Shown here: positions 4,987 through 23,045 of the stretch, one piece after another
Layout of the letters: the number at the start of each line of letters is the position of its first letter
Numbering within the stretch: the stretch's first letter is position 1
Origin: a virus
Taxonomy: Duplodnaviria; Caudoviricetes
Reading direction: 5' to 3' (one strand)
DNA length: 64,000 bases
IMG/VR virus record: IMGVR_UViG_3300012952_003952
Location: 177,979-241,978 of that record
Notes under the pieces: generated by a model
Seen by the model: the letters and a program-made list of their open reading frames with translations, nothing else
Database searches by the model: none
Told to the model about the DNA's origin: nothing
Position numbers and translations under genes: made by a program

Positions 4987-5717
4987 AAACATTCTCTTGC
5001 AATTGAAACAGATCCGCTTGGAGAAGCTTGAAAAGTTCTTATTTTGACATGCGGATAATAGTCTTTGCATAAATCTGCAACAGCGTCGATATTGCCAGAA
5101 TTGTCATCATAAAAATACACTTCATCTGGATCATATTGGTCTATGTAAGATTTCATTATGCTTGCTTTAGCGCTAGGGTTCCCTCCCATATCACCAGCAG
5201 TATGAATGTCTCCACTAGAAATGCTTAATCCTTGAGAATTTAGAAATTGAGAAATGTCTTCTCTGTTCGTAGCTTTTACAGAGTTTCCCCTAAGAGAATC
5301 TAGATCTTGGTTACCAGATCTTGCTGTTATGATTATCACTAAAGAGCTAGGGCTACTCTGCGCGCTTTTAGCTATATTCAATATATTTTCTATTGGAGAA
5401 GTAGAATCAATGTTTACGCCGGCAGTTTCTGAAAAATCGAAAACATCTTCTAGCTCATTAGAAGAAAGGTAATCTAAATCTTTTCTTGCTTTTTGCTCAT
5501 AGTGCGCAAAGTCTTCTGATGAAAACCAAACTATTTCATTTTCAGTGCCTTTATTCTCTACAGAGTTAAAATCTAGTGAATTGTCTAATATCCAATTCAT
5601 GAATTCTGGATCAGCTTTTCCGCTTGGTTTATTTCTCCTAACTCCGATCAGATTATCAGTTATAGCTAGCGTATCATCAAAATCAAACGCGAATATTTTT
5701 TTAATTTTTGAAGCCAT
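4983..5717 (-). CDS. HAD-superfamily phosphatase
   Basis: Motif I FDFDDTL, motif II IITARS, conserved K, motif IV FYDD; start at MASK. Confidence 0.8.
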   Translation of the reverse strand: MASKIKKIFAFDFDDTLAITDNLIGVRRNKPSGKADPEFMNWILDNSLDFNSVENKGTENEIVWFSSEDFAHYEQKARKDLDYLSSNELEDVFDFSETAGVNIDSTSPIENILNIAKSAQSSPSSLVIIITARSGNQDLDSLRGNSVKATNREDISQFLNSQGLSISSGDIHTAGDMGGNPSAKASIMKSYIDQYDPDEVYFYDDNSGNIDAVADLCKDYYPHVKIRTFQASPSGSVSIARECF

Positions 5718-5774
5718 GTACAATTTCCTTATGCAAAATATAAGTATTATAGTATTATCTAACAAGAGACTCTA

Positions 5775-6071
5775 ATGAATCCTTTAAGACTTTTTATAAG
5801 AGAAATTTTAAAAGAACAAGTAGTCGGGTATACACCGCCGCAAAAAGATTCTAGCGGAGATGACGACGCCGACTTTTTAGCTTATGGAGACATGTCAAGT
5901 CCAGCGCCTGCAAATCCTTCCGAAACCGAAGATCCAGAAGACGAAGAGCAGCTTCAGACGCAACTTCAGACTACTAATAAGCAACGCCAAAAAGATTTAG
6001 ATTCAGGTGATGCTACGGCTGCTAATTACGACGGTAGGGTACTTCAAAAACTTCAAAAAACTACAGGATAG
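5775..6071 (+). CDS. Acidic hypothetical protein with LRLFIREILKEQ leader (possible virion internal protein)
   Basis: Leader resembles those in the 51.6-54.5 kb array. Confidence 0.55.
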   Translation: MNPLRLFIREILKEQVVGYTPPQKDSSGDDDADFLAYGDMSSPAPANPSETEDPEDEEQLQTQLQTTNKQRQKDLDSGDATAANYDGRVLQKLQKTTG

Positions 6072-6072
6072 T

Positions 6073-6102
6073 TGTGAAAAACTAAGCTTACTTTGATATA
6101 AT
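6073..6102 (+). promoter_or_regulatory. Promoter TGTGAA-N18-TATAAT upstream of dnaE
   Basis: TGTGAA 6073-6078, TATAAT 6097-6102 preceded by TG-A; same spacing recurs at four other sites. Confidence 0.65.
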
Positions 6103-6122
6103 AAACTATCAAAGGTAGGTTT

Positions 6123-9100
6123 ATGAAAACACCCAGCAAGTTTTTTGGTTTACACGCGCATTCTGGCTTTTCTATTTTCGATGGGCTAGGTTATCCGCAA
6201 GAACATATTGATTTTTGTAGAGAGAATGGACTAGACGGATGGTCCATGACTGACCATGGTCACATGAACGGCTTTGGTCACGCTTATTTGCACACGGAAA
6301 AGCTAAATAAAGCAGGCGGTAATTTTAAGTTAATCCCCGGCTGCGAGATGTATGTTCATCCAGATTTAGACGTGTGGAAGCTAGATTACGAAATCAATAA
6401 AACAGCTAAAAAAGGAGACAAAGAAGCTTTAGCTATTTTAAAAAAGCAGAGAGAAGCAATTCAAACTCCTCTTCTCGCTTTTGTAGATGAGCATGACGAA
6501 ACTTTAAACGTTGGCCTAGAAGGCGCTTCTTTGACCGTTGAAAACGAAGAAGAAACTAAATCAGGAAAGTTTTATGATCCGATCAAGCGTCGTCACCATC
6601 TAGTGGTTTTACCAAAAACTTCCGAGGGATTGCAAAGGTTGTTCCACTTAGTTTCTCGAGGTTACACAGAGGGATTCTATAGATTTCCAAGAGTAGACTA
6701 TAAGATGCTTAAAGAAGCCGCTAAGGGTGGCCATCTAATGGTATCGACAGCTTGTATCGGTGGACCGTTAGCCTATGACGTGTTCCAACCGCTGCAAGAA
6801 ACCAATTTTGAAGATCTCATTCCTTCACTTTTTGATGACGAATCTTTAAGAAATAAAATTCTTTCTAAGTTTGAATATTCTTATGACCAGCTAGCGGATG
6901 CCGTTGGAGAAGAAAATGTAATGCTGGAATTGCAGTTTAATAAACTCCCAGCGCAGCACTTAGTAAACAAAGCTATATTAGAATTCGCTAGAACGCGATC
7001 TTTAACAGATCAACTTATTGTTACTTGCGATTCTCATTATGCTTCTCCTGACCACTGGAAAGAGAGAGAGCTTTATAAAAAGCTCGGGTGGCTAAACTAT
7101 CAAAGCTTTAATCCAGATAATTTGCCCAAATCTAAAGAAGACTTAAAGTGCGAACTGTACCCTAAGAATGCAAAACAGGTTTGGGAATCATATCTTGAAA
7201 CGACAGAAGGCCACGATTTTTATGAAGATTCAGAAATATTTGACGCTATAGAAAGAACACATGATGTTGCTCACGAGATGATTGGAGAAATTCACCCTGA
7301 TCGTAAAATGAAATTACCTTCTTATGTAGTTCCTAAAGGCCAAACAGCGAATAAAGCTCTTTTAGAAGCAGCTAAAGCTGGATTAATCAAGCGAGGACTA
7401 GCAAATCAACCAGAATATGTCGACAGGATGAAGACAGAGCTTAAAGTTATTTTTGATAAAAATTTCTCTGAGTATTTCTTAACCATGAAAGCAATTATTG
7501 ATCTTGCTCGCGAGAAAATGCTAGCTGGACCAGGCCGCGGATCTGGAGCAGGGTCTCTAGTGAATTACGCCCTTTATATTACTGACATAGATCCAGTGGA
7601 ATATGGGCTCTTATTTGAGCGGTTCATGTCTCCAGAGCGAACCGAAATGCCGGATATCGACACCGATATCGCAGACCGAGATGAACTCATTAAAATTCTT
7701 AGAGAGAATTTTGGTAACAAAAATGTGATTCCGATCTCAAATTACAATACTTTCAAGATCAAAAGTCTTCTTAAAGATGTTTCTAGATTTTATGGGATTG
7801 AATTCTCAGAAGTAAATAAGACTCTAGCTTCTCTAGAAAGAGATGTTGCTCAAGGAAGAAAAGCAGACGGCGTGGACGCAGCTTTTGATATTAGTTTTGA
7901 AGAAGCCAAGAAGTATTCTACTAAAGTTAGTGATTATCTAGAAAAATATCCTCAAATTGCAGACCCTATCAATGTGCTTTACAAGCAAAATAAAGCACTT
8001 GGCCGACACGCTGGTGGTGTCATTGTTTCTGAAAAAATAGAAGAAAGAATGCCTTTGATTGTGGCTCGTGGCGAAATGCAAACTCCTTGGGTCGAGGGAA
8101 TGAACTACAAGCACCTTGAAGAGTTTGGTTGGATTAAGTTTGATCTCCTCGGCCTAGAAACTCTTAGAATTATCGAAAGAACAATTTCTCTTGTTTTACA
8201 AAAATCAGGGGTGGAGAACCCAACGTTCGACCAGGTGGTAGATTGGTACAATGAAAATATTGCCCCAAACGTAATTGACTTCAACGATAGCAAAGTTTAC
8301 AAAAACGTATATCACTCTGGAAGGTGGGCTGGTATTTTTCAGTGCACTCAAAGAGGTGCGCAAGCTCTATTTAAAAGAGCTAAGCCAGAATCAGTAGTAG
8401 ATTTAGCTACTCTTACTTCTATTTATCGTCCTGGTCCACTTTCTGCAAAAGTAGATAAGCTTTACATTAAAGCCAAAAACAATCCGCAGAATGTTTTTTA
8501 TGGTCACCCTTTAATCGAACAAGTTCTAAATTCAACTTATGGAATGATTATCTTCCAAGAGCAAGTAATGGAACTTTGCCATGTCGTAGCCGGTTTTCCA
8601 AAAGCAGAATGTAATAAGCTTAGAAAGATGATGAAGCCGGTTGGGTCTGGTAACGAAAATGTAAAGAAGGCTGCAGCTCTAAAGAATAAATTCGTAGAAG
8701 GAGCTTCGCAAAATGGAGTAGATAAAAATATAGCTAGCGAGCTTTACGATAGAATCTTGTATTTCAGTGGCTATGGTTTCAATAAGTCTCACGCTGTTTC
8801 TTACGCAGTTAATTCTTACCACTGCGCTTGGCTTATGACTTACTACGAGCAAGAATGGATTCAAGCTTATTTAGAAGCTTGTTCTGGTAACCCTAAAAAG
8901 CTTTCTAAAGCCCTAAGCGAAGTAAAAGCTTTAGGATACAACATTGTTCCCATCGATATCAATAAAGCTGGTAAAGCTTGGAGTTGCGTAGACGACAATT
9001 CTTTGATGCCGTCTTTTCTCTCTTGTAAAGGCGTTGGCGAAGCTGCTGTAGAAGAAATCTTAGAGCAGAGACCTTACTCTTCTATTGAAGATTTGTTTTG

Positions 9101-9722
9101 GGATGAAGAAGGAAAGTGGAAGCATGCAAAATTCAATAAAAGAGCTATTGAATCTTTAATCAAGATTAGAGCTTTTGATTCTCTTGATTGTGTGGGTCCA
9201 GACAAAACTTTCCAAAGTTATTCTCACATGCACACTGTACTCATGGAAAACTTTAATGATATCAGGAAGAGAACCAAGAAAGATCCTTATCGCGGCAAGA
9301 ATAACTTTATTAAAGCTTTAGTAGAATCTCCTCGTTCTGAAGAGTGGTCTTTCGATGCGTTGATGAACTTTGAAGAAGAGTTGTTGGGAACTATTAACGT
9401 AGAAGCTCTTCTTCCGAAAAAATTCGTGAAGAAGATGACCGAAAAGAATATCCATTCTTTAGACGATCATAACGGAAGAGAGTTTTATTGGTTCGTTTTG
9501 ACTAAAGCTATACCTAAGCTTACAAAAAACAAGAAGCCATACCTTCTTTTAAATGGAATAGCTTCAACTGGAAGGGTCCATAGAATGTTTTGCTGGGGAG
9601 TTCCTAAAGATGCTGACCTTCCGCCGTTTACTTTTTGTATAGCCGAAGTAGACAAAAACGACTTTGGGATGTCTACTAAGTGGAACAGAATTAAAAAATT
9701 TAGCTTTAATGATTTAGCTTAA
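6123..9722 (+). CDS. dnaE: DNA polymerase III alpha subunit (family C)
   Basis: PHP domain (HAHS..S.FDG, TDHG, DSHY), GPGRGSGAGSLV, catalytic MPDIDTD, GRHAGG, KFDLLGL, YRPGP, YGFNKSHA. Confidence 0.97.
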   Translation: MKTPSKFFGLHAHSGFSIFDGLGYPQEHIDFCRENGLDGWSMTDHGHMNGFGHAYLHTEKLNKAGGNFKLIPGCEMYVHPDLDVWKLDYEINKTAKKGDKEALAILKKQREAIQTPLLAFVDEHDETLNVGLEGASLTVENEEETKSGKFYDPIKRRHHLVVLPKTSEGLQRLFHLVSRGYTEGFYRFPRVDYKMLKEAAKGGHLMVSTACIGGPLAYDVFQPLQETNFEDLIPSLFDDESLRNKILSKFEYSYDQLADAVGEENVMLELQFNKLPAQHLVNKAILEFARTRSLTDQLIVTCDSHYASPDHWKERELYKKLGWLNYQSFNPDNLPKSKEDLKCELYPKNAKQVWESYLETTEGHDFYEDSEIFDAIERTHDVAHEMIGEIHPDRKMKLPSYVVPKGQTANKALLEAAKAGLIKRGLANQPEYVDRMKTELKVIFDKNFSEYFLTMKAIIDLAREKMLAGPGRGSGAGSLVNYALYITDIDPVEYGLLFERFMSPERTEMPDIDTDIADRDELIKILRENFGNKNVIPISNYNTFKIKSLLKDVSRFYGIEFSEVNKTLASLERDVAQGRKADGVDAAFDISFEEAKKYSTKVSDYLEKYPQIADPINVLYKQNKALGRHAGGVIVSEKIEERMPLIVARGEMQTPWVEGMNYKHLEEFGWIKFDLLGLETLRIIERTISLVLQKSGVENPTFDQVVDWYNENIAPNVIDFNDSKVYKNVYHSGRWAGIFQCTQRGAQALFKRAKPESVVDLATLTSIYRPGPLSAKVDKLYIKAKNNPQNVFYGHPLIEQVLNSTYGMIIFQEQVMELCHVVAGFPKAECNKLRKMMKPVGSGNENVKKAAALKNKFVEGASQNGVDKNIASELYDRILYFSGYGFNKSHAVSYAVNSYHCAWLMTYYEQEWIQAYLEACSGNPKKLSKALSEVKALGYNIVPIDINKAGKAWSCVDDNSLMPSFLSCKGVGEAAVEEILEQRPYSSIEDLFWDEEGKWKHAKFNKRAIESLIKIRAFDSLDCVGPDKTFQSYSHMHTVLMENFNDIRKRTKKDPYRGKNNFIKALVESPRSEEWSFDALMNFEEELLGTINVEALLPKKFVKKMTEKNIHSLDDHNGREFYWFVLTKAIPKLTKNKKPYLLLNGIASTGRVHRMFCWGVPKDADLPPFTFCIAEVDKNDFGMSTKWNRIKKFSFNDLA

Positions 9723-9757
9723 TTTGTAAATCTAGCGAAAGAGGATATTATTACTAC

Positions 9758-10606
9758 ATGAATTCGAAATACAAAAATTTAAATCAAGCCTTTGTAGAAG
9801 AGTTAGTCGATTGCCACAAGAACGGCGTAGAAGTTGAATCTCGTGGCTTCGTACAAAAAGAAAAACTTTTCTCTTCTTTTATAATTCAAGATCCCACCGA
9901 TTTGCGAATTGATGTCCCAGCTAGAAAGTTCAATGAAGACTATGCAATTTTAGAATGGCTTTGGTACCTAAACTCTGACTCTAGAATAAAGACTATCGGT
10001 AAATTTGCAGATATTTGGAACAAGATTGCAGATTCGCAAGGGGTCGTTGAGTCTAACTATGGCTCTTATTTAAAGCCGTGCTGGTATGACTTAGTAGATG
10101 AGCTTATATCTGATAGAGATACCCGTAGAGCAACTTGCGTAATTAATCAGCCATACCATAGGTTCAAAAACCCAAAAGACTATCCTTGTACGCACTATAT
10201 TCACTTTTTTATCAGAGAAGAAGCTCTTCACATGGGCGTATATATGCGGTCTAATGATGCAGTTTTTGGTTTTTGTAACGACGTTTTCACCTTTGCGTTG
10301 TTTCAACAGCTTATGCTAAATGAACTAAACGCTCGCGGTGGTAAACTTTCATTAGGAACATACTACCACTCGGCTGGAAGCTTTCACGTATACGATAGAC
10401 ATTATTCTATGATGGAAAAGATAGCTGAAAATTATTTTGTGAAAGCTAGAAGAAATGGGTATCCAACCGACTTAAAGAAAATAGTGCTAGATCCCAATTT
10501 AACCTGGCCGAAAATGGAAAACTACACGTCTTTTTTCAATGAAGACTTAGACAAAGAAGAAGTTTTAAATACAATTAAAAAGACTAAGGAAATTATATTC
10601 AAATGA
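9758..10606 (+). CDS. Thymidylate synthase homologue of dCMP hydroxymethylase/methylase type
   Basis: DTRRA, catalytic YPCT, MRSNDAVFGFCND with Asp at the position of the TS Asn (T4 gp42-like), AGSFHVY. Confidence 0.85.
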   Translation: MNSKYKNLNQAFVEELVDCHKNGVEVESRGFVQKEKLFSSFIIQDPTDLRIDVPARKFNEDYAILEWLWYLNSDSRIKTIGKFADIWNKIADSQGVVESNYGSYLKPCWYDLVDELISDRDTRRATCVINQPYHRFKNPKDYPCTHYIHFFIREEALHMGVYMRSNDAVFGFCNDVFTFALFQQLMLNELNARGGKLSLGTYYHSAGSFHVYDRHYSMMEKIAENYFVKARRNGYPTDLKKIVLDPNLTWPKMENYTSFFNEDLDKEEVLNTIKKTKEIIFK

Positions 10607-10884
10607 ATATTCTAAAAAAAGCAAATGAGATAATCAATGAAAGATCTGAAGAAAAAGAGCGCCAATACGGCCCAATGGGTGAAGGCCTTGAAAGAGCTGC
10701 GATGATTGCTTCTGGAATAACGGGTAAAGATTTAACAGCAGACGATATTTTTGCATGCCTCATCGGCCTTAAATTTTCTAGACATTCGTATAACTACAAA
10801 GAAGATAATTTTCTAGATGCTGCTGCTTATTTGGGAGCGTGGAACAATTACCAACAGGAGAAATTAAAAAGTGAAGATAAGTAA
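10603..10884 (+). CDS. DUF6378-like small all-alpha protein (putative dNTP pyrophosphohydrolase)
   Basis: ILKKANEIINER..E..RQYG, IGLKFSR, DNFLDAAAYL. Confidence 0.65.
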   Translation: MNILKKANEIINERSEEKERQYGPMGEGLERAAMIASGITGKDLTADDIFACLIGLKFSRHSYNYKEDNFLDAAAYLGAWNNYQQEKLKSEDK

Positions 10885-11305
10885 AGTAAGGGCAGTTAAA
10901 ACACCGCAAAGGGGGACTCCAGAGTCAGCTGGAATTGATTTTTTCGTGCCAGAGGGAATGATAGCTAAATTATCGCCTGGAGACTCTTGCTTGATGCCAA
11001 GCGGAATCAAAGCCAATGTTCCATCTGGCCATGCATTAATAGCGTTTAATAAGAGTGGAGTAGCAGTTAAGAAATCTCTTCACGTTGGGGCATGCGTCGT
11101 AGACGAAGATTATCAGGGCGAAATTCACCTTAATTTAATCAATGTTGGCTCGAGCGTTGCAGAGATAAAATCTGGAGAAAAAATAGTCCAATTTATTTTA
11201 CTTCCTGTTTTTTATGACACAATTGAAGAAGTAGAATTGGAAAACCTTTACGAAGACGAAACTGTTCGAGGTGAAGGTGGTTTTGGTAGCACGGGAGTAG
11301 AATAG
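10871..11305 (+). CDS. dut: Trimeric dUTPase
   Basis: AGIDF, KSG, VVDEDYQGEI, QFILLP, RGEGGFGSTG. Confidence 0.95.
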   Translation: MKISKVRAVKTPQRGTPESAGIDFFVPEGMIAKLSPGDSCLMPSGIKANVPSGHALIAFNKSGVAVKKSLHVGACVVDEDYQGEIHLNLINVGSSVAEIKSGEKIVQFILLPVFYDTIEEVELENLYEDETVRGEGGFGSTGVE

Positions 11306-12375
11306 TGGATTATTTTGTAGATTATGAAATTCCTAAAAACTTTAAGATAGGGATCGACGGACTAGAGAGAAACATTCCGGCTAGAAAACACAGCCACAAT
11401 GCTGCCTGGGTTCATCTCTACAAAAATATGCTACAATCTGCTGGCTGGAGTGATGTACACGTCTTAGGCAATCATGACACTTACGAAGGTTATGATGCTA
11501 TGATATTTTATCCAGGAATTGCTTACGCTGGAACGATTAACTTCTTTTTTGGAGTTGACGACAATGTAGTTAGAAGGTTCTCCAGAATTCAAGATTTTGA
11601 AGGTCCGACTTTTATTTTAAATCATGAAATGCCGCTCATTGGAGCGACGATCAGCAAAAGACTGCACAATAAATCGACAAGCTCGAAAATTGGAAATCTT
11701 AAACTGAGCTTATTAGATGATATTTGCAAATCTACTCGCAGAATAGATTATGTTGAAAGATCAACAAAGCTTTGCTTTGGAGACAGTCATTGTTTTTCTG
11801 CTTATCTTCCAGGGTATTCTGTTTGCCGAAATGACGGGCTCACTCTTTTTTCTACGCTTCGCGATGGAGTAAAAGAGACCATTGAAGAAAAATATGGAGC
11901 TTCTGTTGAAAATTTGACTCATCTTACTTTTTATATGGGCAATATTGATATAAGGCACCACTTGATGCGCCAAGAAAATCCATATGAAAAAATCCACGCT
12001 ATGACTATCGAGCTTTCACACCAGCTTAAAAAACTTGATATACCAAACATTGAACTAGTTCACGCACTGCCTATCGAAAATATTTCTAGAAAACTTCCTA
12101 AAACTGGATATTATAAGAAGACTCCATATTTCGGAACTTGGGAAGAAAGAACAAAATTAGTCAATACATTCAATGCCGCTGTAGATAGAATTTGTATAGA
12201 AAACAAATGGAATTCTTTCCACTGGCCAGCTAAATTTTTAAATGATTCTGGTGAATTAGACTTTGAATATATGGAGCGCCCTAAAAGCGTACACTTAAGC
12301 CCGCTTTCTTATAGGTGGGACCTTTTTGAAAATCAATTAAATTTATTGCATAGTAATCAAAACAACGGAGAATAA
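11305..12375 (+). CDS. Putative DNA-modification protein: BGT-like N-terminal region plus SGNH-hydrolase-like C-terminal domain
   Basis: YDAMIF...TINFFFG resembles T4 beta-glucosyltransferase YDRLIV..SINFFGG; FGDSH, MGNID, SVHL resemble SGNH blocks I, III, V. Confidence 0.45.
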   Translation: MDYFVDYEIPKNFKIGIDGLERNIPARKHSHNAAWVHLYKNMLQSAGWSDVHVLGNHDTYEGYDAMIFYPGIAYAGTINFFFGVDDNVVRRFSRIQDFEGPTFILNHEMPLIGATISKRLHNKSTSSKIGNLKLSLLDDICKSTRRIDYVERSTKLCFGDSHCFSAYLPGYSVCRNDGLTLFSTLRDGVKETIEEKYGASVENLTHLTFYMGNIDIRHHLMRQENPYEKIHAMTIELSHQLKKLDIPNIELVHALPIENISRKLPKTGYYKKTPYFGTWEERTKLVNTFNAAVDRICIENKWNSFHWPAKFLNDSGELDFEYMERPKSVHLSPLSYRWDLFENQLNLLHSNQNNGE

Positions 12376-12376
12376 T

Positions 12377-13567
12377 ATGCCAAAAAACAAGTCAATTAGA
12401 GTTGCAATCGTCGGAGTCGGAAATTGTGCTAATTCCTTTTACCAGGGCTTAACGTATTATGCGGGGTACACCGCTGGACAAGAGCGCGATGGAGTGATGA
12501 AGAGCCGAATCGGAGGATATTCGGTAGCTGATCTCGAGGTTGTAGCAGCATTCGACGTTGATAAACGAAAAGTTGGAAAGTGTTTTAGAGAAGCTATGCT
12601 AGCCAAACCAAACTGTACTCCAAGCTATGAGGCAAATGTTCCTGACGGTCCCGTAGTTCAAATGGGCCCAATCATGGACGGTGTTCCAAATTTGATGGCT
12701 AATTATTCTGATGAAGAAGCGTTTAGAACTGCTGATTTAGAACCAGTAGATGTGGCTCAAGTGTTATTAGACCGCAAAGTGGATATTCTTATCAACTATC
12801 TTCCTGTTGGTTCTCAGAAGGCCACCGAGTGGTATGCAGAACAGTGCCTTAAGACTGGAGTTTCTCTTCTTAACTGTATTCCAGTTTTTATTGCTTCTAA
12901 TCCAGTTTGGGAGCAAAAGTTTATTGATGCTGGAATTCCACTCGTTGGCGATGACATGAAATCTCAATTTGGGGCCTCTATTATGTCTCAAATGCTTCAA
13001 GAACTAGCTTTTGCTCGAGGTCTAAATGTTAAAGCTCACATTCAGCGAAATGTCGGTGGCAATACTGATTTCTTGAACATGGTAGATCAATCTCGGCTGA
13101 AATACAAGAAAGTTTCAAAGGAGAATGTAATTCGATCTCAACACGTAATTCGTGGTGTAGACCCCGAAGAATCTTTCCTCCATGCTGGGCCGTCTGAATA
13201 TATTCGCTACTATGGAGATAACAAGGTCGCAAACTTCCGAATTGAAATGGAGGGATTCCTTGGTGCCCCAGTTATTTTAGACGCGCAGCTTTCTGTAATT
13301 GACTCTCCTAACTCTGGAGGCGTTGTAATCGACGCCGCTCGGTATCTAAAAGTCGCCAGAGAGATGGGCATTGTAGGGGCTCTCAGAGGTCCGTCTGCTT
13401 TTACTCAGAAGACTCCGCCTCAACAGCTTATGTTTAGTGAAACTCTTTATGAATGCGACGCTCTTTCTGATAGGAGGCTCACTCGATTTACTAAGCGCCA
13501 AACAGAAAAATACAGCGCTGAAGAGCTTTACCTATCGTGTCCAGCAGGAAACAAGGAAGTAGATTAA
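12377..13567 (+). CDS. ino1: Inositol-3-phosphate (myo-inositol-1-phosphate) synthase
   Basis: AIVGVGNCA, INYLPVGSQKA, GDDMKSQFGA, NVGGNTDFLNM, GPSEY, DSPNSGGVVIDAAR. Confidence 0.95.
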   Translation: MPKNKSIRVAIVGVGNCANSFYQGLTYYAGYTAGQERDGVMKSRIGGYSVADLEVVAAFDVDKRKVGKCFREAMLAKPNCTPSYEANVPDGPVVQMGPIMDGVPNLMANYSDEEAFRTADLEPVDVAQVLLDRKVDILINYLPVGSQKATEWYAEQCLKTGVSLLNCIPVFIASNPVWEQKFIDAGIPLVGDDMKSQFGASIMSQMLQELAFARGLNVKAHIQRNVGGNTDFLNMVDQSRLKYKKVSKENVIRSQHVIRGVDPEESFLHAGPSEYIRYYGDNKVANFRIEMEGFLGAPVILDAQLSVIDSPNSGGVVIDAARYLKVAREMGIVGALRGPSAFTQKTPPQQLMFSETLYECDALSDRRLTRFTKRQTEKYSAEELYLSCPAGNKEVD

Positions 13568-14283
13568 TGGCTAAATTGCATGAGCAAAAAGGAAAACTTT
13601 TTAATCCAGACTCTGAAGATTTTGAAGAGTGTGTAATAAAGTTTAACGGAAGGAATGGGTTTTGGTACAGACCAGGCACTTTTGATTTAAATTCTATAAG
13701 AGAGTGCAGAGACAATTATAGCGATATTGACACTTGCGGGAAAACAGTTTTAGATTTAGGAGCCAACATTGGAGGATTTTCAAGAATGGCTCTAGAAAAA
13801 GGAGCTAAAAAAGTAATAGCTTTAGAGCCATGCCCTCATAATTTTCAAATTTTAGAGATCAATGCCCCAAATGCAGAATGTCTAAATGCTGCAGTTTGCG
13901 AAAGCAAGGTAAAAGAAGTAGTTTTTCATTATGCTGGATCTAAAAGAAACTCAGTGTCGTCTTCTACTCTTAAAAGAAGAAATGCTTCTGGAGTATCTAT
14001 TGCAGTACCAGGATTATCATTTTCAAGTCTTTTAGAAAAATATAGGCCAGAAATATTAAAAATAGACATTGAAGGTAAAGAGTACGACATTTTAGATTCT
14101 ATTAAAGAAATTCCAGATTTCGTAGAAATAGTAGGGATTGAGTTTCACAATACTCGTAAGCCATACTCAGAATATCCAGTTAAATTTTTCCCAGAGTCCA
14201 CTTGGAAGAAAGTAGAACACCCTATTTTGATGTTCGGACAGAAAAAAGTTTTAGATTACACTTTTTATAGAAAGTATGCATAG
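13567..14283 (+). CDS. FkbM-family SAM-dependent methyltransferase
   Basis: VLDLGANIGGFS, VIALEP, LKIDIEGKE; TAATG overlap with ino1 stop. Confidence 0.85.
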   Translation: MAKLHEQKGKLFNPDSEDFEECVIKFNGRNGFWYRPGTFDLNSIRECRDNYSDIDTCGKTVLDLGANIGGFSRMALEKGAKKVIALEPCPHNFQILEINAPNAECLNAAVCESKVKEVVFHYAGSKRNSVSSSTLKRRNASGVSIAVPGLSFSSLLEKYRPEILKIDIEGKEYDILDSIKEIPDFVEIVGIEFHNTRKPYSEYPVKFFPESTWKKVEHPILMFGQKKVLDYTFYRKYA

Positions 14284-14292
14284 GAAATATTA

Positions 14293-14709
14293 ATGAAAGT
14301 AAATGGTTTTGATATTGATGGAGTTATCCATCTTGGAGACGGAGTCTGCGGCATTCGCCCGGGCCCTGGAGATGTTATCATCACAGGACGAAGCTTTGAA
14401 GAAGAAGCTGAGACTCTAGCTTTTCTTCGGCGCAATGGAATTAATAACCCAGTTTTTTTTAACCAGTGCCATTATGAGGAAAAATCTCGAACAGGGTCAG
14501 GAAATCATAAGGCGGAAACTATTAAGCTTCTCCACAGAGCTGGCTTAAGCGTTCAATATTTTTTTGAAGATGATGAAGTTCAAAAAGCTGAAATTGAAAG
14601 AGGCATCGAAGAAGTCTCAACTTGGGGAATCGGAACTAAAGTTATTCACGTCAACAATCCTCATGTTAAGAAAGAAAATAGACGTCATTTAGAGGATTTA
14701 AATGAGTAA
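14293..14709 (+). CDS. Capless HAD-family phosphatase
   Basis: FDIDGVI, ITGRS, HKAETI, FFEDD. Confidence 0.8.
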   Translation: MKVNGFDIDGVIHLGDGVCGIRPGPGDVIITGRSFEEEAETLAFLRRNGINNPVFFNQCHYEEKSRTGSGNHKAETIKLLHRAGLSVQYFFEDDEVQKAEIERGIEEVSTWGIGTKVIHVNNPHVKKENRRHLEDLNE

Positions 14710-16156
14710 TTCTGAACTTCTTAAAATGAGGGATGAAGAACTCTTTGCAGAGATACCCACTTACAAAAAGCAAGATTTTGTCGACTTTATAAAAGAGCTT
14801 AACAGAAGAGAGTACTTAGTAAGATTTGCAAAGTCGTGTACTTTTGACTCTTTTGAGCATTTGCCTGGAACTGGATTTAAATACGGGAACGGCTTTATAG
14901 TAGACGGCAAATCAGTACCTTACTTCCACCCCAATCGTAGTTTTCATGATGAGATAATTTGGTTAAACGAGAACCTATTCTATAATCCCCAAGCTACGTT
15001 TGAAGATAAACTTATTAATGCGGCGATAGTGAAATTCTATGGGCCTTCTAATACCCTTAAACTAATTGCTGAGGGCACCGGCAAGAAATTCGTGGACTAC
15101 AAGAGGTTCGTGGGAGATCCTAAATACTTGAGGCAGGTTTGCGTCAATTTAGAAACAGCAGTTAAGAATAAAGAAAAGATTTATGGAACAACTGAGCTTA
15201 GGACAAGCTTACAAACAGCTGGTAGAAATTATGCTAGAAGCGTTGGTTCTCCAATTGATAAAATAGAATTAATTCCAGTTTCTGAAAGGAAATCTCGTAC
15301 GTGCCGTCCCTCTGATATTCTTTTTTGGTTTACTAAAATCGGCCCTGATTTTGTTAAATTTTATAAAACAACACCCAACATGGAAGAGTCTTTTAAGTTT
15401 TTAAATTCATTTCGAGGAATTGGAAATTATTATGGATACCATTTTAGTTGTAACCTTGCTCGAATGCCAGAAGTAGGAAATTTAATTTTTAAGGGAACTC
15501 CTGGAAAAATTGACGAAGACGACGAGTATGTAGTTCCTGGGGTTGGAGCAATGCAAGCGATTAATTGGTTTTATGAACACAGGGGACACTCAATTAATAC
15601 AAAAGTTGGAAAGAAATTAATCAATGCTATTCGACGTCACCAAAATAGTTTCTTTGACTTAAATAATGCTGATAATTCTAAATTCTATATGGAAAAAGTT
15701 TCTGAACTGGGATATTTTACTAATTTTGGATGTGAAATATCTTGCTGCCAGTTTGGAGTTTATCGTCGACTAAGAGAAGATAAAAAATTAGCTCTAAGGA
15801 GAGCAGCAGCGCCAATATCAAGAGAGGAAGTAAAAATGATTCTTACGCCCAAAACACTAATGCAAAAACTCGGTCTTTTATCTGAAGAAGATTCTAATGT
15901 TGAAAATAAAAATCAAAGTATTGAAAAAGATTCTTCACTAGATTTTTCTTCGACTAGCAAAGAAGACTTGATCCTTAACATCATTGATGAAGCTGGAGGT
16001 TCTTGTTCACATTCTTCAGTTGCTAAATTAATCGAAGAAAAAGGATACACTCAGTATAAGCAAAATGGTTCTTGGAAAGAGAGCTGGATGATAATGAGGC
16101 AACTTGTTGAAAAGGGGGCCTTAGTAAAAGACGGAAAATTTTATCGGAGGTCATAG
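14702..16156 (+). CDS. aGPT-Pplase1 / 5-hmdU DNA kinase helical-domain-like protein with C-terminal winged-helix-like tail
   Basis: YFHPNRSFHDEIIW, RGIGNYYGYHFSCNL, DEDDEYVVPGVGA, CEISCCQFGVYRR follow the family pattern (F.N..R..D...W; G.G.F..Y....DL; D.....GPGA; E...CE..KY.R). Confidence 0.7.
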   Translation: MSNSELLKMRDEELFAEIPTYKKQDFVDFIKELNRREYLVRFAKSCTFDSFEHLPGTGFKYGNGFIVDGKSVPYFHPNRSFHDEIIWLNENLFYNPQATFEDKLINAAIVKFYGPSNTLKLIAEGTGKKFVDYKRFVGDPKYLRQVCVNLETAVKNKEKIYGTTELRTSLQTAGRNYARSVGSPIDKIELIPVSERKSRTCRPSDILFWFTKIGPDFVKFYKTTPNMEESFKFLNSFRGIGNYYGYHFSCNLARMPEVGNLIFKGTPGKIDEDDEYVVPGVGAMQAINWFYEHRGHSINTKVGKKLINAIRRHQNSFFDLNNADNSKFYMEKVSELGYFTNFGCEISCCQFGVYRRLREDKKLALRRAAAPISREEVKMILTPKTLMQKLGLLSEEDSNVENKNQSIEKDSSLDFSSTSKEDLILNIIDEAGGSCSHSSVAKLIEEKGYTQYKQNGSWKESWMIMRQLVEKGALVKDGKFYRRS

Positions 16157-17334
16157 TGTCAGATATTAAGTGGGGAACAATTATTCCTCTTATTGGCGGA
16201 AGCGCTATAGGGTGCTCACAAGCTACTAAAAATAAACCAGAGTTTCATCTTAGCTACTCTGCTTTCGGCGCTAACGAAAAATATCTAACTGACTACTGGA
16301 AAGATGTTCCGAGAATAGTTTTAGATGAAGGTGGAAAAATACCAAACGAAAAAATTGATTTTATCAATTCTGTTTGTCCGTGCGCAGGCCTAAGCCAGCT
16401 TAATACTTCTAGAAGTAAAGATATGCGTGAATCTAAAAACTATTGGATGTACGAATCTGCACAGAGAATCTTAAGCGAACTACGCCCTAGAGTTTATTGG
16501 GGAGAAAATGCGCCCGGCCTTTTTACTAATTCAGGCGCGTACGTGCGTGATAAGCTTAAAGTTTTTGCTAAAGAAAACGGCTACACTTTTTCTCTTTACA
16601 AGACCGATACGCAAAGGCACGGTATTCCGCAACGCAGAGTAAGAACTTTTTACTTTTTCTGGAGAGACACTAACCCTCCTCTCTTGAGCTATTTTAATAA
16701 CCCTCCCATTCCATTCGCCGAGTACATAAGACAGATACCGCAATCTGCAACCCTTCAAGATCAATTTAACATCGAAGGGAAAATCTCTGAAAATTTTGAT
16801 TCTTATGCTTTTGTGTTACAATATCTTGGGTTGGCGCATGAAGAGTTCGTGAAGTCTAATGATTCTGGCTCTATTCACTCTATTTTTTCTTATCTATCAG
16901 AAAATAATCTTTTAGCCGAGTGTATTGAGTGGATTGAAAAAAGAAATATTGAAGAAACTGCAGAACACAGACGACTCAAAGCTATTTACAAAAAAGTTCA
17001 AGCGGGTGGAAGATTTATGGATGCTTCTCCTGGATATTATTACAACCGCACTAATGCAATCGTAGGAAGAACCTTGACCCATTTAGTACACCCCACTGAA
17101 GACAGAGGGATGTCTATTAGAGAGCTTCTTCATATGATGGGACTGCCCCATGATTTTGAAATGGGCGATAGAAAATCTCTAAATGTAATCGCTCAAAATG
17201 TTCCAACTTGTACAGCTAGAGATATGGCAAGTCAAGTTATAGAATACTTAAGAGGTGATTTACAAATTGCAGAAAACAGCTTTTTAATGCAAAATAACCT
17301 AAAAGAGGAGATTACATTATGCGAGCCCTTGTAA
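16156..17334 (+). CDS. C5-cytosine methyltransferase-fold protein with atypical motif I
   Basis: Motif IV VCPCAGLS, VI WGENAP, VIII PQRRVRTFY, IX/X RELLHMMGLP..F, QNVP; motif I is PLIGG; GTG start. Confidence 0.8.
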   Translation: MSDIKWGTIIPLIGGSAIGCSQATKNKPEFHLSYSAFGANEKYLTDYWKDVPRIVLDEGGKIPNEKIDFINSVCPCAGLSQLNTSRSKDMRESKNYWMYESAQRILSELRPRVYWGENAPGLFTNSGAYVRDKLKVFAKENGYTFSLYKTDTQRHGIPQRRVRTFYFFWRDTNPPLLSYFNNPPIPFAEYIRQIPQSATLQDQFNIEGKISENFDSYAFVLQYLGLAHEEFVKSNDSGSIHSIFSYLSENNLLAECIEWIEKRNIEETAEHRRLKAIYKKVQAGGRFMDASPGYYYNRTNAIVGRTLTHLVHPTEDRGMSIRELLHMMGLPHDFEMGDRKSLNVIAQNVPTCTARDMASQVIEYLRGDLQIAENSFLMQNNLKEEITLCEPL

Positions 17335-18305
17335 CTGGCGGATGCGGTTTTATCGGATCTTGTTTAACTAAAAAATTGGTAGATTTAGGCTGGGACGTAG
17401 AAATAGTAGATGATATGTCTAATGGAGATTATTCTTTTTTAGAAGAGTATTCTTTTCGTAGCGTCCCTGTTCAAATGGGACATATTTTCGAAAATCAAAA
17501 TTTGAAAAAAGATGACGTTATTACTGTTTTGGTAGGAGATTTTGTTAGCCAAGAAGTTGTTAGAAGGATTGTTGAAAAAAAATATGACGTAATTTTTCAC
17601 CTTGCAGCTAACCCAAGAGTAGAATACTCGGTGCAAAATCCGCTAGAGACTACAGACGAAAACCTTACAAAGACCATAAGGCTTTTTACTCATGCTGTGG
17701 GTAATGTCAAGAGAGTTGTTTTTTCTTCTAGTTGCTCAGTGTATGGAGACCCTTGGAGTCTTCCAACTACAGAAAGCCATGGAAAAAACCCTAACAGTCC
17801 TTATGCTCTTCAAAAGCAATGTGTTGAAGAATACGCTAAACTCTACTCAAAAATATATGATTTAGATGTAGCTTGCTTGAGGTACTTTAACGTATATGGT
17901 CCATTTCAGCATGGCGACTCTCCTTACTCTACTGCCATAGTTTCTTGGTGTGATAAAGTATCTAAGGGTTTGCCTCTTCGGAGTGATGGAGATGGCACTC
18001 AATCTAGAGACATGGTTTTTGTAGAAGATGTAGCGCGAGCTAATATTTTAGCTGCTACTAGAGAAGAAAATTTCAATGGAAAGTCTATAAACATAGGAAG
18101 CGGCGCTTCTTATACCAATAATCAGATTTTAGATATTTTTAAAAATCAATTTGGAAATTTAGAAATCACACATGCTCCAGAACGGCCTGGAGACGTAAAG
18201 CACACGCAAGCAGATGTTAAAGAAGCTAGATCTAAATTAGGCTTTACTACTGAATACAGCTTAGAAGAAGGGTTGAAAAAGACCTTTGCTTGGTGGGACT
18301 TATAA
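17319..18305 (+). CDS. NAD-dependent nucleotide-sugar epimerase/dehydratase (extended SDR)
   Basis: VTGGCGFIGS, HLAA, SSCSVYG, YALQK, LRYFNVYGP, RDMVFVEDVA. Confidence 0.92.
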   Translation: MRALVTGGCGFIGSCLTKKLVDLGWDVEIVDDMSNGDYSFLEEYSFRSVPVQMGHIFENQNLKKDDVITVLVGDFVSQEVVRRIVEKKYDVIFHLAANPRVEYSVQNPLETTDENLTKTIRLFTHAVGNVKRVVFSSSCSVYGDPWSLPTTESHGKNPNSPYALQKQCVEEYAKLYSKIYDLDVACLRYFNVYGPFQHGDSPYSTAIVSWCDKVSKGLPLRSDGDGTQSRDMVFVEDVARANILAATREENFNGKSINIGSGASYTNNQILDIFKNQFGNLEITHAPERPGDVKHTQADVKEARSKLGFTTEYSLEEGLKKTFAWWDL

Positions 18306-18859
18306 TGACAAACCCTCAATTCATTATTTTTACTGGACCGATGTTTGGAGGCAAGACCACGAGGCTATTGTCTGCTTTAGATAGATACGTTCACCAAAAG
18401 AAAGATGTTTTAGCTTTCAAGCCAGATATCGACAAAAGGTACGGGAAAGAGTCTATTAACACTCACACTGGCGGAAAGATTGATGCCATCAGAGTTGCGA
18501 CTGGTGAAGATATAGCACAATGCGTTCTAGAAAAAGCAGAAAATAAGTTGGTAGAAATCATTGCAGTAGATGAAGCTTTCATGATACCCGGCTCTGCTAA
18601 CGTGCTAATAAATCTTTTCAACAAAGGATTCACTATCTTGATATCTACTTTACAGCTATGTTCTGACGGTACGTCTTATAAAGAAATTAGAGAAATGATG
18701 CCTTGGGCTACTAAAATAGAAATCTGCCCTGCGGTTTGTACAGTGTGTGGATCCGATGCGTATTACACTTTTAAAAAAGGCGGAAATAGCCACCAGCAAA
18801 TTGAAGTTGGAGGAGCTGATTTATACGAGCCCCGCTGTTTAACTCACTTTGAATTTTGA
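18305..18859 (+). CDS. tdk: Thymidine kinase
   Basis: GPMFGGKTT, FKPDIDKRY, VDEAF, C..C Zn site, IEVGGADLYEPRC. Confidence 0.93.
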   Translation: MTNPQFIIFTGPMFGGKTTRLLSALDRYVHQKKDVLAFKPDIDKRYGKESINTHTGGKIDAIRVATGEDIAQCVLEKAENKLVEIIAVDEAFMIPGSANVLINLFNKGFTILISTLQLCSDGTSYKEIREMMPWATKIEICPAVCTVCGSDAYYTFKKGGNSHQQIEVGGADLYEPRCLTHFEF

Positions 18860-18916
18860 ATAATTAATGAAATTATTCCCACTTTTTATTATAATATAGA
18901 TAGAGGACTATGAAAT

Positions 18917-19345
18917 ATGCCTGAATACAAAAGCTCTTGGAAATCAAAATCATCTAGTCATTTGACCCCATGGGGATCTGAGATCCGGTGGGCTGCTACT
19001 TCTGGCTGTGTAGGTAAATGTTTAAGCGTAAAAAAGGGAATGAGAACCAGTTTAAAGTACTATAAAATGAAAGATGAAGTGCTATTTTTGTATCGCGGCA
19101 AAATATTGGTTACTCACGGAGACGAGAAAACTATAGAAGATCCAACTCGCCACCCGTATGTTAAAAGCTATCTTGCTCCAGGAGAGATGGTGATAATTCA
19201 AAGCGGTTGTCCTTATAGAATAGAAGCTTTAGAAGATTCTGAAGTTATTGAGATAGGAACGAACCGCGGTGCTGGAATTGGTGACCGAGTTATGGTAGAA
19301 GATGATTTTGGTAGAGTAGAAAAACCAGAAAGTGGAGAAATATAA
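18917..19345 (+). CDS. Cupin-fold protein (mannose-6-phosphate isomerase type II-like)
   Basis: TPWGSE, TSLKYY..KDE, YRIEALEDSEVIEIG, RVMVEDDFGR. Confidence 0.7.
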   Translation: MPEYKSSWKSKSSSHLTPWGSEIRWAATSGCVGKCLSVKKGMRTSLKYYKMKDEVLFLYRGKILVTHGDEKTIEDPTRHPYVKSYLAPGEMVIIQSGCPYRIEALEDSEVIEIGTNRGAGIGDRVMVEDDFGRVEKPESGEI

Positions 19346-20245
19346 ATGATCGTAAGTGATCCATCTTCAGTAAACGTGGTAATTTATCACGCCGATTGTA
19401 CGGACGGTTTCGGCGCAGCATATTCAGCTTGGAAACTCCTCGGCAATCGCGCAGAGTACTACGCTTGTAAGCACGGAACGCCACCGCCTGAAGTAAAAGA
19501 CAAAAACGTTGTAATCTTAGATTTTTCTTTTGATAATGCGACGACTAAAAAAATGATAGAAGAAGCATCTGCTTTATTGGTTATTGATCACCATAAATCA
19601 GCAGTAGTAGAGCTTCACGATATCAGCAACACTATTTTTGATATGACAAAGTCTGGAGCTATGTTATCATGGGAATGGTTTCATCCAGGAAAAGAGCCGC
19701 CAAAATTTATAAAATACATTCAAGACAGAGATTTGTGGAAGTGGGAACTTGATTATTCTAAAGAGTTTAGCGCTGCGTTTGATATGGTGCCATTCGAGTT
19801 TGAAGAGTTTGAAAAATTTGAAGACGATTCAGTTTTTGATGATGCAGTAAAACGAGGTTCTTACATTTTAGCTTATAGTAAAACCGTCGTCAAGAAAGTA
19901 TGCGAAAAAGCCCAACCTAGAAAAATGGATGGGAAAGATGTTTTGGTGGTTAACGCTTCTCACTGGATGTCTGAGATTGGCTCAAGGCTAGCTCCTGATT
20001 GTGATTTCGCAATGATATGGTATTGGGATCATGATGCACAGCATACAAAAGTTTCTCTGAGAGCTTTTCATGACGCGGTTGATGTTTCTGAGATCTCGAA
20101 GAAGTTTGGCGGAGGTGGCCATAAAAAAGCAGGAGGGTTTCAACTTCCTAAGAATAAACACGTAGAAGATTTATTCGACAAACCAAAACCAGCAAGAAAG
20201 AAAAGAGCTTCAAAAACAAAGGTTAAACAAGATGAGTCGTCCTAG
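19346..20245 (+). CDS. DHH/DHHA1 phosphoesterase (NrnB/oligoribonuclease-like)
   Basis: YHADCTDGFGAA, ILDFS, IDHH, QDRDLW, GGGGHKKAGG. Confidence 0.88.
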   Translation: MIVSDPSSVNVVIYHADCTDGFGAAYSAWKLLGNRAEYYACKHGTPPPEVKDKNVVILDFSFDNATTKKMIEEASALLVIDHHKSAVVELHDISNTIFDMTKSGAMLSWEWFHPGKEPPKFIKYIQDRDLWKWELDYSKEFSAAFDMVPFEFEEFEKFEDDSVFDDAVKRGSYILAYSKTVVKKVCEKAQPRKMDGKDVLVVNASHWMSEIGSRLAPDCDFAMIWYWDHDAQHTKVSLRAFHDAVDVSEISKKFGGGGHKKAGGFQLPKNKHVEDLFDKPKPARKKRASKTKVKQDESS

Positions 20246-20636
20246 TTGGGATCAGATCTGGATGAATTTTGCAGAATCTATTTCTGAAAGATCTTATGAT
20301 CCAAGGTTTCAAGTTGGAGCAGTCGTTGTAACTGAAGACAACAGCCAGGTTTTAGCTGTTGGATACAATGGAAATTATGCCGGCGGACCCAATCAAGTAG
20401 AGTCAGAAACCCCTGGAGAGTCTGGTATGCTACATGCTGAAATTAATGCGCTCTTAAAAATGGATTATAATAACCCTAAAAAGAAAAAGCTTTATTTAAC
20501 TCTATCGCCTTGTAGAATGTGCGCAAAGGCTATAATTAATAGTGGAATTAAAGAAGTAGTCTACGCTGAAGCTTACAGGGATCTTTCGGGGATAAAACTT
20601 TTAAAAGAATGTGGCATATCAGTAAGACACTTTTGA
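20232..20636 (+). CDS. dCMP deaminase-family protein
   Basis: QVGAVVV, GYNG, HAEINAL, SPCRMCAK. Confidence 0.88.
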   Translation: MSRPSWDQIWMNFAESISERSYDPRFQVGAVVVTEDNSQVLAVGYNGNYAGGPNQVESETPGESGMLHAEINALLKMDYNNPKKKKLYLTLSPCRMCAKAIINSGIKEVVYAEAYRDLSGIKLLKECGISVRHF

Positions 20637-22680: not shown

Positions 22681-23045
22681 AAGTTGAAAAAATTGCGAAC
22701 GGCTTACTTTACGAAAGGTATAAAAGAAAACTTTTAGAAGCTCTTTCCGAAGTAGATGTTTTAGATGATCAGGGTAATATCATAATATCGAAAGATTTAA
22801 AAGTGAAACATAAAGATTCTGGTTTTGAATACACAGTAGATGATGTAGTAGATGATAATGGAAATGTCAGTATCTATCTTAGAGATCCCACTGCCCCGCG
22901 TATAGAAGATCCACCAGGAGACGAAACTTTATTAGGCGCTCCTCCAGCCGCAGATTTTCTTCATGAAGAAGACGACGAAGACGAAGAAGATACTGTATTT
23001 GTAATAGATCAAAGTGAATTTGAAAAGGAATACGAAATAAAATGA
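22677..23045 (+). CDS. Hypothetical acidic protein
   Basis: ATGA-coupled ORF. Confidence 0.6.
   Translation: MKVEKIANGLLYERYKRKLLEALSEVDVLDDQGNIIISKDLKVKHKDSGFEYTVDDVVDDNGNVSIYLRDPTAPRIEDPPGDETLLGAPPAADFLHEEDDEDEEDTVFVIDQSEFEKEYEIK

Follow-up and report, generated by a model that had tools for sequence, protein, structure and literature searches.

The thymidine hypermodification systems of phages PaMx11, M6, ViI and PhiW-14 combine a dUMP hydroxymethylase, a 5-hydroxymethyl-deoxyuridine (5-hmdU) DNA kinase and a transferase of the aGPT-Pplase2/ADDT type (PMC8989533, PMC11472151). The PaMx11 transferase, PUGT, is a 5-phosphomethyl-dU glycinyltransferase (PMC11472151) whose Cys247 attacks C6 of the base, whereupon the phosphate is expelled and glycine adds to the exocyclic methylene (PMC11472151; PMC8989533). 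Here we describe ten + strand open reading frames (ORFs) at positions 9758-18305 of a 64,000-nt stretch (the window) of the viral record IMGVR_UViG_3300012952_003952, from an uncultured jumbo phage of the Caudoviricetes. Judging from their sequences, they probably constitute an operon for a phage DNA hypermodification system that installs a cyclitol, putatively O-methyl-inositol, on 5-hydroxymethylcytosine (hmC). The original prediction, made from this DNA alone, had proposed hmC decorated with inositol or O-methyl-inositol, and this interpretation is supported by comparative evidence: the signature of a thymidylate synthase (TS) homologue, the association with the inositol-3-phosphate synthase Ino1, the family of a putative transferase (P8) and a series of gene fusions.

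As in the PaMx11, M6, ViI and PhiW-14 systems, a TS homologue would provide the 5-hydroxymethyl pyrimidine, the base would be modified in DNA after replication by a helical enzyme of the aGPT-Pplase superfamily carrying a Glu-x3-Cys pair, and tailoring enzymes are clustered with the transferase; ViI gp247 even offers a precedent for an O-linked (ether) product, formed from the serine hydroxyl. Unlike these systems, the window has a TS of the dCMP type and hence a cytosine base, P8 belongs to the PF18723 clade and not to PF18724, a two-domain protein with an SGNH fold (P4) takes the place of the missing P-loop base kinase, the nucleophile is presumably a cyclitol made by the phage Ino1 and a HAD phosphatase instead of a cellular amino acid or polyamine, and the tailoring enzyme is an FkbM methyltransferase. 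With T4 (gp42, gp56, gp1, alpha-/beta-glucosyltransferase) the window shares a gp42-type dCMP hydroxymethylase, a dUTPase-family enzyme, a dCMP deaminase and a thymidine kinase, as well as the proposed decoration of hmC with a C6 polyol after replication; yet the operon contains neither a GT-B glucosyltransferase nor a UDP-sugar donor, and the substituent would be a carbocycle held by an ether bond instead of a glycosidic one, with its donor made by the phage. The arabinosyl-5-hydroxycytosine clusters of RB69 and DLP3 likewise encode a full donor route, including a small HAD sugar-phosphate phosphatase beside the TS homologue, but their TS homologues yield 5-hydroxy-dCMP owing to D169N, a change that is absent from the window enzyme with its Asp, and these clusters rely on UDP-sugar activation and GT-B transferases (PMC13326640).

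The first enzyme and the synthase-then-phosphatase logic are those of actinobacterial Ino1 and inositol monophosphatase (IMPase) in the mycothiol and phosphatidylinositol (PI) pathways. In contrast to these, the putative phosphatase of the window is a small capless HAD and not of the IMPase fold, MshA, PI synthase and CDP-inositol enzymes are all lacking, and the neighbours are DNA-modification genes. Phages Cr30 and RP13 and the Stenotrophomonas Menderavirus share the Ino1-HAD pair inside a base-modification cluster, though the Cr30/RP13 group differs by a thymine or 5-methylcytosine oxidation route and a canonical kinase and ADDT pair, and Menderavirus by a 7-deazaguanine system (preQ0 genes, DpdA-like) with a GT1-like protein. 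Hydroxymethyl-pyrimidine hypermodification is a known theme; what would be new here, as putative chemistry, is the donor class and the kinase-free architecture. Full-text literature searches found no paper on an inositol-bearing DNA base, and the literature found mentions phage Ino1 only as a bacteria-like gene (PMC9025141).

The ten ORFs lie directly 3' of the gene for a DnaE-type replicative polymerase of 1199 aa (6123-9722, + strand; PF07733, PF17657, PF02811 and PF14579). In the ORF listing neighbouring frames first overlap by 4, 14 and 1 nt, are then 1 nt apart, overlap by 31 nt, are 9 nt apart, and finally overlap by 8, 1 and 16 nt. A thymidine kinase gene (18290-18859, + strand; PF00265, 2.8e-33) overlaps the tenth ORF by 16 nt and is the last coupled gene, so that the block is flanked only by the gaps 9723-9757 and 18860-18916. 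Coordinates, junctions and family searches thus bear out the ten coupled ORFs listed earlier. The entire block recurs with unchanged gene order in ten relatives (L006, L010-L018), and its arrangement is therefore not due to chance. A megablast search of the operon against cultured phages gave no match. In a simple scan for regulatory sites, the number of promoter-like sites did not exceed that of shuffled sequence, while terminator-like ones showed a slight excess (17 versus 11.2 ± 3.4). The G+C content is 38%, nearly every gene is carried by the + strand, and the parent record of 241,978 bp is judged 57% complete.

The first ORF (9758-10606, + strand) encodes a TS homologue (Thymidylat_synt, 1.2e-17) whose closest solved relatives are the CMP hydroxymethylase MilA (6e-23) and T4 gp42 (2.4e-20). 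Its catalytic Cys144 aligns with T4 Cys148 (E. coli C146) and is kept in relatives. In the TS family, specificity for dCMP comes from Asp at E. coli position 177, an acidic residue at position 143 lets in water and so leads to hydroxymethylation, and Asn at position 169 marks 5-hydroxy-dCMP synthases of the RB69 gp48 type (PMC13326640). In the window enzyme, Asp175 (in GFCND) occupies the position of T4 Asp179 and E. coli Asn177, Asp141 (in KDYPC) that of E. coli Leu143, and Asp167 that of E. coli Asp169. Because its residues agree with these published criteria, the enzyme reads as a dCMP hydroxymethylase, in keeping with the dCMP-type TS claimed before, and its sequence supports the conclusion that the phage puts hmC into its DNA; Asp167, retained instead of Asn, sets it apart from the 5-hydroxy-dCMP synthases. 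All relatives with the same type of locus (class A, below) have the same four residues, while two loci of another class (L042, L044) have the Asn of the dUMP type at position 177. No second TS-family gene or ThyX is found in the 242-kb record.

Two small genes follow. The first encodes a DUF6378 protein (10603-10884, + strand; PF19905, 1.4e-12), a regular companion of TS homologues that co-occurs in 13 loci plus L051 and for which Atlas and PDB searches yielded no functional lead. The second encodes a dUTPase-family trimeric nucleotide pyrophosphatase (10871-11305, + strand; PF00692, 1.1e-21; TIGR00576, 105 bits), by analogy possibly a dCTPase/dUTPase like T4 gp56. A DHH protein and a dCMP deaminase (20232-20636, + strand; PF00383, 2e-23), the latter for dUMP supply as in T4, are encoded shortly 3' of the thymidine kinase.

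The donor would come from the Ino1 gene (12377-13567, + strand). Its product matches the family domain Inos-1-P_synth (PF01658, 4.1e-22, 78.8 bits against a cut-off of 27), PHROG 33138 (6.9e-145) and Mycobacterium tuberculosis Ino1 (1gr0; 9.3e-88 over 347 residues, 5-351). Identity to the latter, judged by eye over the alignment, is about 50%, the motifs GDDxKSQ, NVGGNxDFLN and DSPNS are aligned, and the gene is intact. Domain, alignment and motifs all uphold the label of inositol-3-phosphate synthase. The score against the NCBIfam equivalog TIGR03450 (328 bits) lies below the cut-off of 638, as for a divergent viral clade, and because this equivalog is missed the product is presumed rather than assured. 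An Ari2-like synthase of five-membered cyclitols was rejected as the primary reading, with Ari2 matching at 2e-49 against 9.3e-88 for true Ino1. P7 (14293-14709, + strand, 138 aa) is probably a small, capless HAD-type phosphatase, with FDIDGV at residues 6-11 (motif I, the HAD DxDGV start), TGR, and EDDE late in the sequence. It matches PHROG 415, a polynucleotide kinase/phosphatase family (1.1e-9), and weakly Pfam Hydrolase_6 (E 0.2). From its sequence and position we infer that P7 is an inositol-phosphate phosphatase.

The putative cyclitol:DNA transferase, P8 (14702-16156, + strand, 484 aa), combines a PF18723 helical core with a C-terminal winged helix. It matches HMUDK_hel PF18723 (aGPT-Pplase clade 1) at 6.2e-07 (29.5 bits, cut-off 25), as do most homologues, and its structural neighbour in the Atlas is the PF18723 cluster (TM 0.72). 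The AlphaFold2 (AF2) model (pLDDT 90) has the core at residues 1-379 and the winged helix at about 413-484. In an exhaustive VIA search, model residues 24-379 matched PUGT (PaMx11 gp46; 8z2m) with Z 9.9 and an rmsd of 4.2 over 230 residues; the second match to the large domain was the queuine-salvage hydrolase Qng1/DUF2419 (Z 9.4), and the remaining rows were winged helices, the winged helix-turn-helix (wHTH) of P8 reaching Z 10.7 to MecI. Glu345 and Cys349 are invariant in a 51-sequence alignment, in the motif FGCEISCCQF. Their spacing equals that of the E243-x3-C247 pair in the PaMx11 record for PUGT, a correspondence read from sequence. No match was obtained by Foldseek against the PDB at E <= 0.001, by the P8 family profile against solved structures or by an ADDT-neighbour profile against the PDB. 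The earlier label, an aGPT-Pplase1/5-hmdU-DNA-kinase-like protein, stands as regards the aGPT-Pplase family, given PF18723 and Glu-x3-Cys, with the middling fold match to PUGT in addition; P8 itself matches no kinase family, and its AF2 model, an all-helical core plus wHTH, contains no P-loop kinase domain. Sequence and model together point to a transferase-type member of the aGPT-Pplase superfamily, presumably acting as a cyclitol:DNA transferase.

P4 (11305-12375, + strand, 356 aa) has no Pfam match. Its AF2 model (pLDDT 96) consists of an N-terminal alpha/beta domain (residues ~10-150) and a C-terminal SGNH fold, which reaches Z 13.5 to 2hsj in the VIA search and Z > 10 to dozens of SGNH entries; those below 2hsj are esterases and O-acetyltransferases, including PatB and OatA. 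Conserved residues comprise GDSH (D160, S161, H162), GNID in GNIDIRHH, R262, R282, E324 and H330, so that the GDS of SGNH block I and the GxND of block III are present, while only E324 and H330 are conserved in the region of block V, which is Asp-x-x-His in SGNH enzymes. The family is represented by 388 clusters. Of the earlier description as BGT-like and SGNH-like, the SGNH part holds (Z 13.5, GDSH/GNID), while the BGT-like N-terminal domain gained no support: no GT-B protein was among the matches from VIA or from Foldseek against the PDB, Swiss-Prot and AFDB clusters, where the SGNH domain takes up the lists, the N-terminal domain not having been searched alone. In the proposed scheme P4 takes the place expected for a kinase, though the modelled fold points to ester chemistry. 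A prediction of the complex of the P8 core with P4 scored 0.00 and gives no evidence either way.

Between Ino1 and P7 lies the gene for an FkbM-family S-adenosylmethionine (SAM) methyltransferase (13537-14283, + strand; PF05050, 1.3e-14, 55.1 bits against 22.7; TIGR01444, 85.9 against 37.7), which would O-methylate the cyclitol. FkbM, P8 and P4 appear to act as one machine, because they are fused to one another elsewhere. PHROG 17781, a 795-residue family whose type is ORF233c of Aeromonas phage 44RR2.8t, consists of P4 in its first half and P8 in its second; protein P0077 is an FkbM::P8 fusion; and P0137 is an FkbM::P8::P4 fusion on a contig with the order Ino1, HAD, fusion, kinase-like 188-aa protein and D-type TS.

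We propose the following pathway. The TS homologue would act as dCMP hydroxymethylase, and the nucleotide pools would be set, as in T4, by the dUTPase-family enzyme together with dCMP deaminase and thymidine kinase. Ino1 would convert glucose-6-phosphate to inositol-3-phosphate, and the HAD would release myo-inositol or, alternatively, strip the phosphate after transfer. P8 would bind DNA and flip the base, and Cys349, aided by Glu345, would attack C6 of the modified cytosine; the 5-methylene leaving group would be expelled and an inositol hydroxyl would add to the exocyclic methylene, giving ether-linked 5-(inosityl-O-methyl)cytosine. This chemistry is modelled on M6 gp51, PaMx11 gp46 and ViI gp247, the last of which links serine through its oxygen, except that the nucleophile would be a polyol, and the ether linkage in particular is suggested by analogy to the O-serinyl product of ViI gp247. 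FkbM would then O-methylate the cyclitol, P4 might improve the hydroxymethyl leaving group (e.g., by O-acylation) or serve as a DNA-handling partner, and a C5 methyltransferase and a GalE-like enzyme would be accessory. Such a base would protect the DNA against restriction enzymes and other nucleases. Sequence and comparison support four elements of this scheme: the provision of hmC, the reaction of Ino1, the functional tie among P8, P4 and FkbM, and the specific association of Ino1-HAD with base-modification systems.

The last element became apparent from 47 viral Ino1 loci (40 from IMG/VR, seeded on Ino1 alone, three cultured-phage records and four assembly contigs). A small HAD lies directly 3' of Ino1 in 40 of the 47, and in 44 Ino1 sits inside one of three base-modification gene sets, the other three loci being truncated or unclassified. 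Fourteen loci are of the window type (class A, hmC/PF18723), with Ino1-HAD between P4 and FkbM/P8; all have a D-type TS, so that ino1 is indeed conserved beside Asp-type TS and PF18723 genes, in line with the original prediction. Class B (21/47) is defined by a dioxygenase of the TET/JBP type together with P-loop nucleotide kinase 3 and a ~410-aa protein; nine of 13 members of the latter family match PF18724 ADDT (best 1.3e-52), an E265-x3-C269 dyad is invariant, and Ino1-HAD lies between ADDT and the P-loop kinase. Caulobacter phage Cr30 (L002) has all three class B marker genes with Ino1-HAD, while only the ADDT protein and the HAD were detected beside Ino1 in Ralstonia phage RP13 (L003). 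Ino1-HAD occurs with ADDT in L002, L003, L022-L029 and L033-L039, most of which also have TET/JBP and a P-loop kinase like PaMx11 gp49, and occupies there the slot of amino-acid tailoring enzymes in known phages. One locus (L042) combines FkbM, Ino1, an ADDT transferase and a dUMP-type TS, and has no P8. In class C (8/47; L001, which is Stenotrophomonas phage Mendera, 28852-32547, and L030-L032, L041, L045, L046 and L049), Ino1-HAD lies between a TGT/DpdA-like protein of 404-428 aa and QueC, among FolE, QueD and QueE, with a GT1-like protein in some loci. This suggests, from gene content, an inositol-decorated deazaguanine in cultured Stenotrophomonas phages.

In the Ino1 tree the three contexts are interleaved, one class A sequence being sister to Mendera (support 100/99), and the Ino1-HAD cassette has therefore moved between modification chassis. 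A tentative broader reading is that Ino1 plus a small HAD forms a portable two-gene donor cassette plugged into at least three unrelated base-modification chassis, giving a class of cyclitol-bearing bases; in the window the base would be an O-methyl-inositol ether on hmC, made without a base kinase, a Cys/Glu transferase and its SGNH-fold partner replacing ATP-dependent activation. The three chassis would conceivably be TS-derived hmC with PF18723, TET/JBP- or TS-derived hmU with kinase and ADDT, and DpdA-inserted 7-deazaguanine. In a reciprocal check seeded on P8, Ino1 was next to P8 in all eight metagenomic contigs inspected, five of which had been chosen for long contig or fusion architecture and three as distant homologues (41-48% identity) on long contigs; the latter three also carried a TS homologue and a PF00145 gene in the vicinity. 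The modules of two distant P8/Ino1 contigs contain further genes, an NTP_transferase and a PNP_UDP_1 phosphorylase in L067 (2446-4515) and a nucleoside 2-deoxyribosyltransferase-like protein in L068 (5167-5637), a hint of further variants.

Several points weigh against a cyclitol on hmC. All the association evidence consists of gene neighbourhoods in replication-gene regions, where auxiliary genes tend to accumulate, and P4 is found without Ino1 in Aeromonas phages and L051. For P8, hhalign comparisons of ADDT neighbours or PUGT with its family were not significant, which leaves the link between P8 and ADDT as one of Pfam clan, fold and motif only; the fold score to PUGT (Z 9.9) is middling for a helical protein; and PF18723 is named after a kinase helper domain, so that P8 could instead be a substrate-presenting module. 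Searches of the 242-kb record, 57% complete, with PF18751, PaMx11 gp49 and a custom profile found no 5-hydroxymethyl-base kinase that could activate the hydroxymethyl leaving group. The HAD assignment of P7 is based on one motif and the PHROG match. Finally, a conserved and apparently functional C5 methyltransferase would be odd if hmC replaces all cytosine.

It is unlikely, but worth weighing, that hmC is modified with a group other than plain ether-linked (O-methyl-)myo-inositol, be it an inositol phosphate in phosphodiester linkage, in which case DNA would be the substrate of the PNK-phosphatase-like HAD, another cyclitol isomer arising through the GalE-like short-chain dehydrogenase/reductase (SDR), or a larger group on the cyclitol. 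The HAD is indeed capless and matches the polynucleotide kinase/phosphatase PHROG, phosphate could be bound by the numerous invariant Arg and His residues of P4 and P8, an SDR epimerase is coupled to the operon, and relatives of the synthase are able to make other cyclitols (Ari2). However, Ino1-HAD is the sole pair constant across the three contexts, in keeping with a soluble product, myo-inositol, shared by all; the window enzyme resembles true Ino1 much more closely than Ari2 (9.3e-88 versus 2e-49); and most class A loci have no SDR.

We give a similarly low probability to Ino1-HAD being an auxiliary metabolic cassette unrelated to DNA, for an osmolyte, a lipid head group, a mycothiol-like thiol or a glycan, with TS, P4, P8 and FkbM making an inositol-free hmC derivative. 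Aeromonas phages 44RR and 31 have P4::P8 and gp42 without Ino1, L051 has P4 and a TS homologue without it, the large glycan clusters of the phage could use unusual building blocks, and the phage literature treats Ino1 as a stray bacterial-like gene (PMC9025141). Against this, the pair lies within, and not just near, three unrelated base-modification sets, among which it has moved repeatedly, and Ino1 stands beside P8 in each of the eight contigs mentioned above. Company with capsid-glycosylation or surface-polysaccharide genes, which would have pointed away from DNA, was not seen for ino1, FkbM and HAD: 44 of the 47 loci are base-modification loci, Ino1-HAD is never with the glycan genes of the phage, and these form two clusters, in the intervals 43-53 kb and 73-83 kb of the record (GT1, GT2, GT9, UDP-glucose dehydrogenase, carbamoyltransferase, GFO/IDH/MocA oxidoreductase and SDR epimerases), more than 100 kb from the operon, which starts at ~187.7 kb. 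Very improbable is a scheme in which P8 merely presents the hydroxymethyl base while FkbM makes 5-methoxymethylcytosine and P4 an ester on the 5-CH2OH oxygen, inositol, if any, being attached by another enzyme: PF18723 takes its definition from the helical portion of 5-hmdU DNA kinases and the fusions put FkbM and P4 on either side of P8, like the kinase in those enzymes, but the invariant Glu-x3-Cys spacing equals that of the proven PUGT dyad and of ADDT proteins, and FkbM accompanies Ino1 and ADDT without P8 in L042, which ties FkbM to the cyclitol and not to P8.

The cyclitol reading also bears on cultured phages: Caulobacter phage Cr30, Ralstonia phage RP13, the Menderaviruses of Stenotrophomonas, and phages 44RR and 31 of Aeromonas. 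Aeromonas phages 44RR, 31 and 25 have gp42 and gp56 but no glucosyltransferase, and the nature of their DNA has been open since 2010 (PMC2993671). We confirmed the TS genes of the gp42-bearing Aeromonas phages, and the P4::P8 fusion of 44RR and 31 is a candidate answer to what stands in for glucosylation there. In 44RR2.8t (L004) the fusion gene ORF233c (6900-9287) adjoins a symporter gene, ORF234c (5307-6830), whose product matches the Vibrio sodium/galactose transporter vSGLT (3.3e-103). From its sequence, this symporter would fit a P8 enzyme using a free hexose or polyol and not a nucleotide sugar, and in 44RR the substituent may be imported rather than made. A separate compact cluster in L051 (157-4180), probably for a different hmC hypermodification, combines a D-type TS homologue with DUF6378, MazG, a PLP-dependent PALP enzyme and a P4 that is joined to a weak GT-B-like (MGDG_synth) part.

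To our knowledge, the substituents of the hypermodified phage bases described so far are all sugars, amino acids, polyamines or small groups, and a carbocyclic polyol on DNA would, if true, represent a new chemical class. An ether-linked cyclitol would be isobaric with glucosyl-hmC, would probably withstand glycosidases and anti-glucosyl defences, and could evade defences adapted to known modifications, be they restriction, DNA glycosylases or CRISPR. The P8 transferase and the kinase-free activation are also possible tools for tagging hmC.

The two last genes of the operon appear to be accessory. P9 (16156-17334, + strand) belongs to the C5 cytosine DNA methyltransferase family (PF00145 DNA_methylase, 6.4e-18, 65.7 bits against 22), a very large one with 2,885 homologues, and its nearest cultured relatives are stand-alone genes in cyanophages. 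Invariant in 22 homologues are GG and NE (SAM motifs I and II) and CPC, ENA and QRRxR (motifs IV, VI and VIII), and a PF00145 gene is close to P8 and Ino1 in all three distant contigs sampled. By its sequence, P9 looks like an ordinary SAM-using C5 methyltransferase, accessory to the pathway; a role as an aldehyde- or alcohol-exchanging enzyme working without SAM was considered and is far-fetched, motifs I and II being invariant. The tenth ORF (17319-18305, + strand) encodes a GalE-like SDR epimerase/dehydratase (PF01370 Epimerase, 1.5e-49; TIGR01179, 175 bits, below the cut-off), which is restricted to the DnaE-type clade and L040, is absent from most class A loci, and would be accessory in the pathway.

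Elsewhere in the window, two adjoining genes encode glycosylases of base excision, one of the HhH-GPD type (2367-2810) and one of the Fpg/Nei type (2803-3609); in L007 and L008, too, the module is preceded by an HhH-GPD gene. Conserved in relatives are a small protein matching a PHROG annotated as cysteine dioxygenase (18917-19345) and a protein with an Fe/Mn superoxide dismutase C-terminal domain (23042-23728). Among the few minus-strand genes, one (32365-33984) encodes HYDIN/VesB-like Ig domains and a VWA domain. The window also carries genes for tRNA-Met(CAT) (60323-60399) and tRNA-Asn(GTT) (61483-61559).

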